From: Leptogorgia sarmentosa
Taxonomy: Eukaryota
Direction of reading: 5' to 3'
Length of the DNA stretch: 64,000 nucleotides
NCBI GenBank assembly: GCA_964658305.1
Contig: OZ210884.1
Span: 4,092,001-4,156,000, forward strand
The position numbers and the translations under genes were made by a program. The notes beneath the pieces were generated by a model. That model searched no databases and was not told the DNA's origin. It worked only from the letters and a program-made list of their open reading frames with translations. Positions 17,806 through 24,368 of the stretch are shown one piece after another (within the stretch, counting starts at the first letter, position 1; each line of letters begins with the position of its first letter).

Positions 17806-20800
17806 ATGGGGAAAGCATTTAGTCGCCTTTCTGGGTGTCTCCGCGGACCAGCCCAGGAAATCGAGCAGTTTAAAAAAGTACAAGATCCGAAGAAACGCCG
17901 GCGATTTTTTAGAAAGCTGAAAAGGGAAGATGTCAATTTCCAAGAAGAATCCGTGGTAAATAAATATTTTTTTTTAAATTCACATCTGTCAATCTGGTTT
18001 ATTTGCATTGGCGAGCAGTTTAATCTTCATATAAGTGCAGTGACTTTTGCGAATTAAAGTATGAAAACAATGATATTATATGGTTTCTGCTAAAATATTG
18101 ACGCTAGTTTAAATTATTGGCGCGAGTTTCCAATTTAAACTAGCGCATCTAATTTTTTAGAGAACAGTTCAGGATTTTAGTGGCAACAACTGTAATTTCA
18201 GTATTTTTAACCATGAAATAAGTTATTTAATCCAAGTACATCAACCATTGATGTTTACAAATCTGTTGCTAAGCGAGCAATTTTATAATTATGACATCAC
18301 CGCACGCACGCGATTTGTTCTTCATGTATATCGGTCCACTTTATTTTAGTTCAGTGCAGTTCAGTGCGCTGTTTCGCTACACCGCAATCCAGTAGCTTAC
18401 AGGCTCATTCTTTTTTAAAAAAAAATATTATTATTAATCGAAAACGAAAAATACATTTATTGAAAAAACAGAAAAACGAATGATAAAATTGGAAAATTTC
18501 TTCAATCTAATGGTTATAATTTTCTTGAAAATGCCTTGATGTACGTGAAAAGGTACATTCGAAGCCAAAAATAAGAGTGAGCCGTAAAAAATGTCTGAAA
18601 AAGGTAAAATGATACTATTGAATCCTGCTTTGAAATTTTAAGTCGTTTTAATATGATTTTGACAAATTTTTCACCCTTGAAATGGAGATTTAATTATGGA
18701 AAAACAGTTGATTAAAATTTAAACGTTTTTGGATTTTGCTGGATAAGCGTTTCTCTCTGTAATAACGAGTGAGAGACTGTTGTTCTACGATTTAAATTTA
18801 ATCATGAAACTCTTTTTTGCACGGAGAAAATTCCACTTGAAAATGAAATGCTAAAGGAAAATTTTCCATCAATCTAAATTTGAGAAATTTTAAAAGCGTC
18901 TTGTTTATGTGTACTGAATGTATTTTTTATTTCAGCTTGATTCTTCCAATGTACAAATCCTACAAAATTGTGCAAAAAGTTCCAGGCAAGAGACAAAACC
19001 TGAAACCATTCAAGGTAGCTACATAAGACTTTTAACCGTTAAAATATTCAATGTTCCTTCCCAAGATAACACTTTGGGAATAGAAATCGCAACGAAATCG
19101 CTGGTGTGAAATAGCCTTAAAATAGATATAATTGCCTTATAATCTTTGCCCACAATTTTACATGAAGAACAAAAAGTCAATTTATGTTCATTTCTATGGG
19201 TCTTCATCATTAGGTCTCTAGCTATCAGTGCAGTAAACGGTGTCACGTGGCATTATTGCCTCACCTCAACCGTTTTTCGCCCCGATGTCGAATTCCTTTC
19301 AAGTTTCACTTTTTTTTAATCTGGTGTCTATAGAATGAAATTTCATTTTCTTTGATGCCATTTTATTGTCACAGGATCTTTTAGAATTCACCATAATTTC
19401 AGACGTAGCTAATAAGTCCAATTAATTATAAACTATCTCCAAATCATGAAATTTTATTTTAACATAGACTTGATATATACTAAATGCAACTAGAAGTACT
19501 ATGTTTGTAAACTTATATGCATAACACTATGTTTTAGGTAATGTCGGCCGAAGTAAATCTTCCGAGAGGCTTCAGACTGAACAATTTGACGAGTCCTTGC
19601 CATTTGTTGATGATAAGACCGAGAATCTCCCATTGGTCAAGGATAAGTCGGATGTTCAGCTGATTGTATCACCGACTCTTGTTTCCACTTCTGTAAGTAT
19701 AATAGTTTTGTTTTATATAAATACTGACAGAATGGGGGATGGAGGATAATAGGCCAATTGTTATTGGTCCTTCATTGTAAATTGCCTTGAAGAAAATGAG
19801 AGGCTTATAATTCGTTTCATCCTGAGCTTAACTGAAATCGAAGGGATCGACGATGAGTAGTCCCATACGTTTTAAATACGTCCTGAACTTAATTGGAATT
19901 AGGGGGGTCGACGAGGAGTGGTCCGATAAGTTTTAAATACGTCCTGAACTTAATTGGAATTAGGGGGTCGACCGGGAGTGGTCCTATATGCTTTAGAAAC
20001 TTTTGACAAGAAGACTTTCCGGTGCTTAACATTTGAAATGTTATACAATCAAAGTTCTTTAAACGTATTTTTAGTTCAATCTTTTTCATTTCTCAGGATA
20101 TTCGCGTCAGTGAGACAGCTACACCAAATGCTGATGTGGACGAAATTTCCAAAGTCGCATGTAAGTAAACTGTCAACTTTGTTGACTATGCAATGCAATT
20201 AGTTGCACAACTTGCCAAATTGAGACATCCAAATAGAACAGCATGAAATAAAACAATGGAGCCTTCGTCATTATGACTGACGGCGCTCGACAAACCCATT
20301 ATTCGGTGCAACGTGGCCATTTTTAAATAGATGTAATCGATTCTCAGTGAAGACTTTCTCAACGTGACTATGAGTTAGTGTGAAAAACAGAGCACAGCTC
20401 TGCCAGTCTACCAAACGCTCGTAACCGTTGGAGGGAACGTGTATGCATACAGTTAAATATTTCCAAAACTGACGTACTGAAAAAGGATTTTTAGACAACC
20501 TAAAAATGTGATACACTTAAATATTTTTGATTACTTGTCACGGTACCTTTACTTCGCTCTAATATTTAGCCGAACTTGTCACTGACATCGTATCTGAGAT
20601 AATCAACTCGTTGAGAGAATTATCATTAGCCACTGATGGTGCTGAGAACACACCAATCCCAGTGAAGAGCACTACACTTTCTCTTGTGAAGAATGTTAAT
20701 GGCTTATGCAACTTTCTTAGCTCAGAAGTAAGTAAGAGTGAGATATCCTGTCAAAATACTAGCATCTCTAAAGACTAAGGCTGATGTTACACAAAACGAT

Positions 20801-23800: not shown

Positions 23801-24368
23801 ATTTATAGATTTTCATATAATGAATAGGAACTTTAGATTTGGGAGGGCTACGGGATCTACTACGGCGACAAAATAATATTTTGCCAACTCATCACAATTT
23901 CGCATGTGTAAACTAAACCATTTTTTAGTAAAAAGATCAATATTATATAGATAAAAATGCGAGACACCGTTCATGATTGCAAATGTTCTGGAGAAAAATC
24001 TCGTGGCTGTATTAGATTTCGTGGCGGTAGTGAATCAAAGTTCCTATTTGGACGAACTTGAAGCGAAACCGAAAAATACAGAATGTATATTCATTACGAA
24101 ATGTCTCTCTCTTTTCTTCTAGAATATTCCAGACAAGCCTTCGACATTTCAACAAGGTACTGAAATTTACATGTTATGAAATGACCAAGCTAAATTGTTT
24201 CAACGCATGTTAATTAAAATATTCACGAAATGTGTCGGGAAAAAATTTGAATTAGCATTCGTTGAAAGCAGCTCTTTCGCTGTGTGGTGCCGAAGTATTC
24301 TGGAAAGTATGACAGAATAACAATATGTCGCAATAAACCTTTCACTTTTAGACGAAGTTTTGAATTAA
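17806..24368 (+). CDS. Predicted N-acylated tandem-repeat protein with five AKAP-like (PKA R-subunit-binding) amphipathic helices; ~494 aa, 14 exons
   Basis: Phase-consistent exons: 17806-17955, 18936-19014, 19538-19692, 20097-20160, 20570-20727, 21091-21157, 21520-21699, 22093-22193, 22415-22481, 22675-22847, 23004-23070, 23431-23603, 24123-24156, 24352-24368 (total 1485 nt, open to TAA). The N-terminus is MGKAFSRLSGC followed by KKRRRFFRKLKR. The repeat core MDEVSKVA|SKLVSDIISEIINSEKEL occurs 5 times. Confidence 0.8.
19820..20000. repeat. Minisatellite, ~61 bp unit x ~3
   Basis: The unit TTAATTGGAATTAGGGGGGTCGACGAGGAGTGGTCCGATAAGTTTTAAATACGTCCTGAAC is repeated with substitutions. Confidence 0.8.
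20779..20909. mobile_element. PIF/Harbinger (Tourist-like) MITE
   Basis: TIR GGCTGATGTTACAC / GTGTAACATCAGCT, with TAA on both sides (3-bp TSD). Confidence 0.75.
21248..21439. mobile_element. Palindromic element packed with CACATGTG repeats
   Basis: Ends CCCTTACGAAAAATACACATGT / ACATGTGTATTTTTCATAATGG are inverted. About a dozen exact or near copies of (CA)CATGTG lie inside. Confidence 0.7.
23114..23338. mobile_element. Tc1/mariner-type MITE
   Basis: TA|CAGGGTGTCCCAAAAACGTCCCCT ... AGGGGACTTTTTGGGGGACAGCCTG inverted ends. Confidence 0.65.
23824..24047. mobile_element. MITE-like element
   Basis: Short TIR ATAGGAACTTT / AAAGTTCCTAT. Confidence 0.45.

Follow-up and report, generated by a model that had tools for sequence, protein, structure and literature searches.

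The 64,000-nucleotide stretch of Leptogorgia sarmentosa DNA analysed here (assembly GCA_964658305.1, contig OZ210884.1, positions 4,092,001 to 4,156,000), hereafter the window, contains a gene of small exons on the + strand that encodes five copies of one amphipathic helix behind a basic head. Directly upstream lies a gene for an IgGFc-binding/EGF membrane protein (10353-16609, +) with two IgGFc-binding domains and one EGF domain; as it ends at 16609, the remaining gap of 1.2 kb leaves scant space for further 5′ coding exons of the five-helix gene. The downstream neighbour is a RasGEF gene (about 32449/32480 to 42779, +), whose long first coding exon has no Pfam match and whose relatives comprise 12 matches, the only named one coming from Xenia sp. 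(55%). Xenia sp. and Paramuricea clavata, the source of the homolog described below, are octocorals of one order. Farther right, a 421-codon open frame (47420-48685, -) without Pfam match resembles by eye the MACPF-like gene pieces found at 55546-61951 (+; Pfam MACPF, E 1.5e-4 for 60827-61228), between which sits a hAT transposase frame of 1022 codons that looks intact (56954-60022, -).

The initial annotation had postulated a hidden gene at this place. Rebuilt from the window, its model consists of 14 GT-AG exons that give an open frame of 1485 nt and 494 codons, the single stop being at the end. Every feature claimed for the protein turned up in its stated place: all five helix copies, a glycine/serine motif at the N-terminus, Cys11 and a run of basic residues. 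The 13 donors agree on average with 5.0 of 7 consensus positions, versus 2.3 for all 345 GT dinucleotides in the span. Exon 1 (17806..17955, +, as are all exons of this gene) carries the start codon, with an in-frame stop directly before the ATG, the predicted myristoylation signal, Cys11 and the polybasic patch. Exon 2 (18936..19014, phase 0 to 1) encodes a polar linker and is GT-AG and in frame; allelic indels at 19018 and 19022, beside its donor, leave the GT intact. Exon 3 (19538..19692, phase 1 to 0) encodes an acidic linker identical at 26 of 51 positions to the P. clavata protein P0025 (E 2e-13, pairwise).

Exons 4 to 12 are copies of two exon types, A (phase 0 to 1) and B (phase 1 to 0), and each A-B join yields one helix of 18 residues. 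The five helices start at residues 144, 219, 279, 335 and 415, and a phase-1 intron interrupts every one of them, lying between positions 6 and 8 of the helix. Exon 4 (A1, 20097..20160) encodes a linker and then the first third of helix 1, of which exon 5 (B1, 20570..20727) provides the remainder, followed by a linker, and exon 6 (A2, 21091..21157) begins helix 2. Exon 7 (21520..21699), which ends helix 2 and begins helix 3, is B2 fused to A3 with loss of the intervening intron; it is matched by the DNA profiles of both exon types, and the relative P0015 bears the identical fusion. Exon 8 (B3, 22093..22193) is shortened through a new donor: a 2-nt insertion ahead of the homologous donor at 22234 puts the latter out of frame, so that a new donor is needed at 22193, which appears from the DNA to compensate for the insertion. 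Helix 4 is begun by exon 9 (A4, 22415..22481) and completed, ahead of a linker, by exon 10 (B4, 22675..22847), and helix 5 likewise by exon 11 (A5, 23004..23070) and exon 12 (B5, 23431..23603; 51% to P0025).

Of the 14 exons, the last is doubtful. Exon 13 starts at 24123 and was first taken to end at 24156, at a weak donor that agrees with 1 of 4 intronic consensus positions; read through, it extends to 24179 (stop 24177-24179) and its end is identical at 10 of 15 positions to the end of P0025. Since an AATAAA also lies at 24332, within predicted intron 13, a structure of 13 exons is preferred over 14, and exon 13 is probably the last coding exon. Exon 14 (24352..24368) would add 5 codons in frame, with the weak donor before it and no homolog support.

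No homolog matches exon 1, 2 or 14, and exon 8 requires its non-homologous donor, both of which would fit a pseudogene or splice-like sites chained by chance. We regard such an origin as very improbable, as the frame is open across 13-14 exons, conservation is bounded by exons, the P. clavata model is collinear and the deletions seen in relatives are all in frame. Three sequencing runs, which behave as DNA of one sample, contain no GT-AG joints at exon ends and are uninformative on expression. Among the 40 of their 52 variants that are listed, five are exonic versus 9.5 expected (p 0.06), and none of the 10 listed indels is exonic (p 0.12 taken alone). All five exonic variants are non-synonymous, none falls in a helix and none creates a stop; together with the in-frame deletions of relatives, this suggests that the linkers are loosely constrained and that the frame is kept. 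At the level of DNA, the unannotated octocoral gene is real, with its exon structure seen directly and its splicing predicted.

The proposed growth of the gene by exon-pair duplication is well supported. Mean pairwise identity over the five copies is 0.83 at the 3′ end of the A exons (31 nt) and 0.79 at the 5′ end of the B exons (44 nt), and remains high in the splice signals (0.87 at intron +1..+6; 1.0 at -3..-1). In the intron interiors it is 0.35 and 0.32 past the donor and 0.32 and 0.39 before the acceptor, and identity among copies is thus bounded by the exons. The P. clavata model contains one unit versus five in the L. sarmentosa gene, consistent with an expansion from a single unit to five; A and B DNA profiles detected no sixth copy in the window.

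Homologs of the five-helix gene were found in corals only, and the only named true homolog is the P. clavata hypothetical protein CAB4009310.1 (P0025), which aligns at 44% over 140 residues and 45% over 118. P0025, an independently made gene prediction rather than a transcript, matches exon 3, A, B and exon 13 in that order and has the identical join within the helix. Names, Pfam or evident repeats marked eight of the 16 representative matches (P0022, P0024 and P0027-P0032) as unrelated repeat proteins, and these were excluded. For exon 1 the searches gave no homolog, with only matches under 0.9 in ESM Atlas; exon 7 returned nothing usable from the same atlas, and none of 36 candidates scored when exon 7 was compared with longer proteins. 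Two metagenome scans yielded no confirmed locus. Pfam gave no relevant match in 12 exons, five close relatives or P0025, in a scan that the splitting of the helices weakens, and sequence searches of the PDB, which are weak for short helices, returned 7, 0 and 3 matches with E values of up to 10, no AKAP peptide among them. None of these sequence tests linked the five-helix gene to a known AKAP gene family.

The predicted protein begins with a head suited to membrane attachment. Its first seven residues satisfy the published motif for N-myristoyltransferase (NMT), as quoted in bioRxiv 10.1101/2020.08.25.266692, a property shared by no other of the window's 1759 open ATGs; the lipid anchor put forward earlier is upheld by this motif as a prediction, and palmitoylation of Cys11 would be a further, putative lipid attachment. 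The polybasic patch (residues 23-40, nt 17872-17925) has a net charge of +10 in 18 residues, which none of 2000 shuffles reached. Residues 1-45 carry +9 and the remainder of the protein -38, and no transmembrane segment was found in the predicted protein. By sequence, the NMT motif and basic patch would constitute the subcellular targeting signal of an AKAP, and the succession of myristoylation signal, polybasic patch and acidic body is that of MARCKS-like proteins and Akap200. The long form of Drosophila Akap200 is described as having N-terminal myristoylation, a polybasic MARCKS-like patch and then an RII-binding site (PMC5831198), and the coral protein, known here from its sequence, has a myristoylation motif, a polybasic patch and then candidate docking helices. 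By description, the difference is that Akap200 has one RII-binding domain and PKC sites in its patch, whereas residues 23-40 of the coral protein contain no Ser or Thr and hence no PKC phosphorylation sites. The P0025 model has neither a myristoylation motif nor a basic patch, and its start may be wrongly modelled.

The face by which an AKAP helix meets the dimerization/docking domain (D/D domain) is described as comprising positions 2, 5, 6, 9, 10, 13, 14 and 17 (PMC12083921), and the helices were examined for an amphipathic stretch of 14-18 residues that is hydrophobic at these eight positions. All eight are hydrophobic in all five helices, and the AKAP-type spacing that had been claimed is therefore present. 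The claim of five AKAP-like helices is sound insofar as all five match; being copies of one helix, they amount to one piece of evidence and not five. None of 3572 control segments from 10 other ORFs of the window passes the eight-position test. Shuffling produced at least one match in 127 of 5000 cases and never more than two; as the five helices are copies of one, the fair chance figure is that of a single match, about 2.5%. Outside the gene, seven full matches occur among 46,368 six-frame segments. A helix-like frame at 25795 (7 of 8 positions) was set aside as chance, since 90 of these 46,368 segments score 7 or more. Hydrophobic moments of the five helices (0.46-0.55) lie in about the top 1-4% of control segments. 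Exon 7 is predicted to fold as one helix followed by coil, not as a domain (mean pLDDT 63); the prediction for P0025 alone is uninformative (pLDDT 31). A 12-residue AKAP consensus was given no weight, and the literature search did not turn it up. By-eye likeness to a ubiquitin-interacting motif after each helix received no support from Pfam, and a vinculin-binding site was rejected by eye against the known consensus, helix position 16 being polar.

A spacing of this kind might be no more than that of any two-faced helix, and the protein could be a MARCKS-like one at the membrane, with helix repeats whose partner is the membrane surface, calmodulin, a component of the cytoskeleton or another of the helices. 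Such a protein would be expected to have a myristoyl motif, a basic patch and an acidic body, as this one does, the source on Akap200 describes a form without the RII site (PMC5831198), and the segment that follows the helix is itself conserved among copies and relatives. The PDB search with the helix-spanning profile, a weak test, gave its three matches at E up to 10 with no AKAP peptide among them. We nevertheless consider this account rather unlikely, given that the face has the full five-turn length reported as necessary for R subunits (PMC12203939), that helix positions 5-6 are small residues, and that neither Pfam of the exons and close relatives nor the PDB searches found a named alternative partner motif.

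How the helices have changed bears on whether their face matters. Across the copies, all 45 face residues considered stay aliphatic and the polar face undergoes charge reversals; neutral simulation retains all 45 in 8-182 of 4000 runs (0.2-4.6%), depending on branch length. Over copy pairs, which are not independent, pN/pS is 0.38 for the face, 0.61 for the polar face and 0.68-0.80 for the linkers. In close relatives, which are exon fragments, the helix is unchanged in all four that cover it: the helix part of exon 10 is intact in P0013 and P0016, one of which has an in-frame linker deletion of 5 residues, and P0014 retains the helix part of exon 12 and has an in-frame linker deletion of 3 residues. 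Deletions in these relatives affect linkers only. In three of the five (P0016 was omitted as a near-duplicate of P0013, and P0017 because it stops short of the helix), 0 of 36 helix residues changed versus 16 of 134 linker residues (Fisher test, p 0.025). Judged from these comparisons, the hydrophobic face seems to be under selection in the octocoral lineage of this gene.

Distant relatives give a different picture: the face is retained in one of three, P0026, and the two others, P0025 and P0023, have a lysine at face position 10. P0025, which also has a threonine at position 13, shows a hydrophobic moment of 0.27; set against the L. sarmentosa gene, it comprises one unit with a broken face and, in its model, no matching head. 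Lys10 thus occurs in two of these three sequences, and as far as they show, the candidate docking face does not appear to be kept throughout the family. The same lysine would suit a gene whose function lies in the head and in overall acidic length, the repeats being nearly neutral and the helix incidental, conserved mainly as a flank of the splice junction. Synonymous divergence is 0.27 for the helix codons at the five A-B junctions versus 0.46-0.52 for the linkers, and such low divergence near the junction means that splice signals or enhancers, or gene conversion, may explain part of the helix conservation. The high linker pN/pS and the non-synonymous nature of all five exonic variants among the 40 listed agree with near-neutral repeats as well. 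We consider this reading quite unlikely, as the face stays aliphatic beyond neutral expectation, has changed less than the polar positions within the same run of codons, and is spared, with the rest of the helix, by those five variants.

The reading we prefer is that of a membrane-tethered, multivalent D/D-domain anchor, which on present sequence evidence we give about an even chance, binding being predicted. The protein of about 495 residues, a basic head plus five duplicated amphipathic helices, would be held at the membrane by a predicted N-terminal myristate and the basic patch. Its helices would likely serve as docking sites for dimeric D/D-domain proteins, the regulatory subunit of PKA being the likeliest, and the flexible acidic linkers of 38-62 residues predicted between them could permit several holoenzymes to be bound at once. 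Because the intron phase is identical in all five helices, a variable number of sites is possible: exon skipping, in frame and conceivable rather than observed, could set it from one to five, and all 15 possible A-to-B joins are open and retain the face pattern. The RI-selective start is absent, position 1 being Glu or Lys and position 2 Val or Ile with no aromatic-Ala, which makes an RII-type partner likelier. D/D proteins unrelated to the kinase, described as numerous in metazoans (PMC8339350), can also be bound by helices of this sort, and within the anchor reading about two thirds of the weight falls on a PKA partner and one third on other D/D proteins. Against D/D docking weigh the Lys10 of two of three distant relatives, the origin of the five copies in one event and the 2.5% chance of a match. 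A charged residue in the face is reported to abolish anchoring, and AKAP helices to arise through gradual change in non-binding helices (both PMC12203939). Thus there are two alternatives: this lineage acquired or retained docking and then multiplied the helix, or the repeat is a non-docking helix.

Several known systems share parts of this design. The initial annotation presented a multi-helix AKAP as an exception, which overstates the case, AKAPs with several helices being already known (AKAP220, SKIP, BIG2). AKAP220 and SKIP are reported to hold more than one PKA holoenzyme via separate helices (PMC12083921); they are large vertebrate-type proteins with two sites, some with an aromatic-Ala start, whereas the coral gene has five near-identical candidate sites from exon duplication. 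BIG2 is described with three potential R-binding helices (PMC13025221) and, unlike the coral protein, is a folded Arf exchange factor whose helices are not tandem copies. The small smAKAP, held at the plasma membrane by myristoylation plus palmitoylation, is comparable in its targeting to that predicted for the coral protein; it has a single RI-selective helix with an aromatic-Ala start, which the coral helices lack. Other proteins engage D/D domains through helices of this type and do not bind the kinase (PMC12203939). They are mostly ciliary or nuclear structural proteins, and four helical turns are enough for DPY-30, whereas the coral helices have five. Published inventories, to the extent covered here, name only a few AKAPs from early-branching animals and set anchors with two sites (AKAP220, SKIP) apart as a class of their own (PMC12083921).

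The literature search found no cnidarian AKAP and no five-helix AKAP; two- and three-site AKAPs are in print. An oyster sperm AKAP reportedly has six RII sites, which makes the novelty of high valence uncertain. If the preferred anchor reading is true, a small five-site protein tethered to the membrane would be a natural test of the effect of valence on local cAMP signalling, and the relative with one unit and Lys10 would form a pair with the five-unit gene for testing whether anchoring helices arise by few changes in an existing helix. If the helices do not bind, the gene would be an ordinary lineage-specific repeat gene missed by annotation. More speculatively, and doubtful as a whole, a non-binding helix of the octocoral lineage may have become PKA-docking and been copied fivefold behind a membrane anchor, with a valence tuned by skipping, as a recurring invertebrate design missed by vertebrate-centred AKAP lists.

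Repeated DNA is frequent around the gene. Short high-copy elements, three of them with inverted arms, occur at 16639-16776, 20780-20908, 21248-21439 and about 23140-23320, where they adjoin the five-helix gene or sit within its introns, and their depth on the contig is very high. A dispersed repeat accounts for a mini-exon candidate near 19066-19103, which was therefore discounted. Tandem arrays are present at 19820-19995 (61-nt unit) and at 24818-24971 (10-nt unit).
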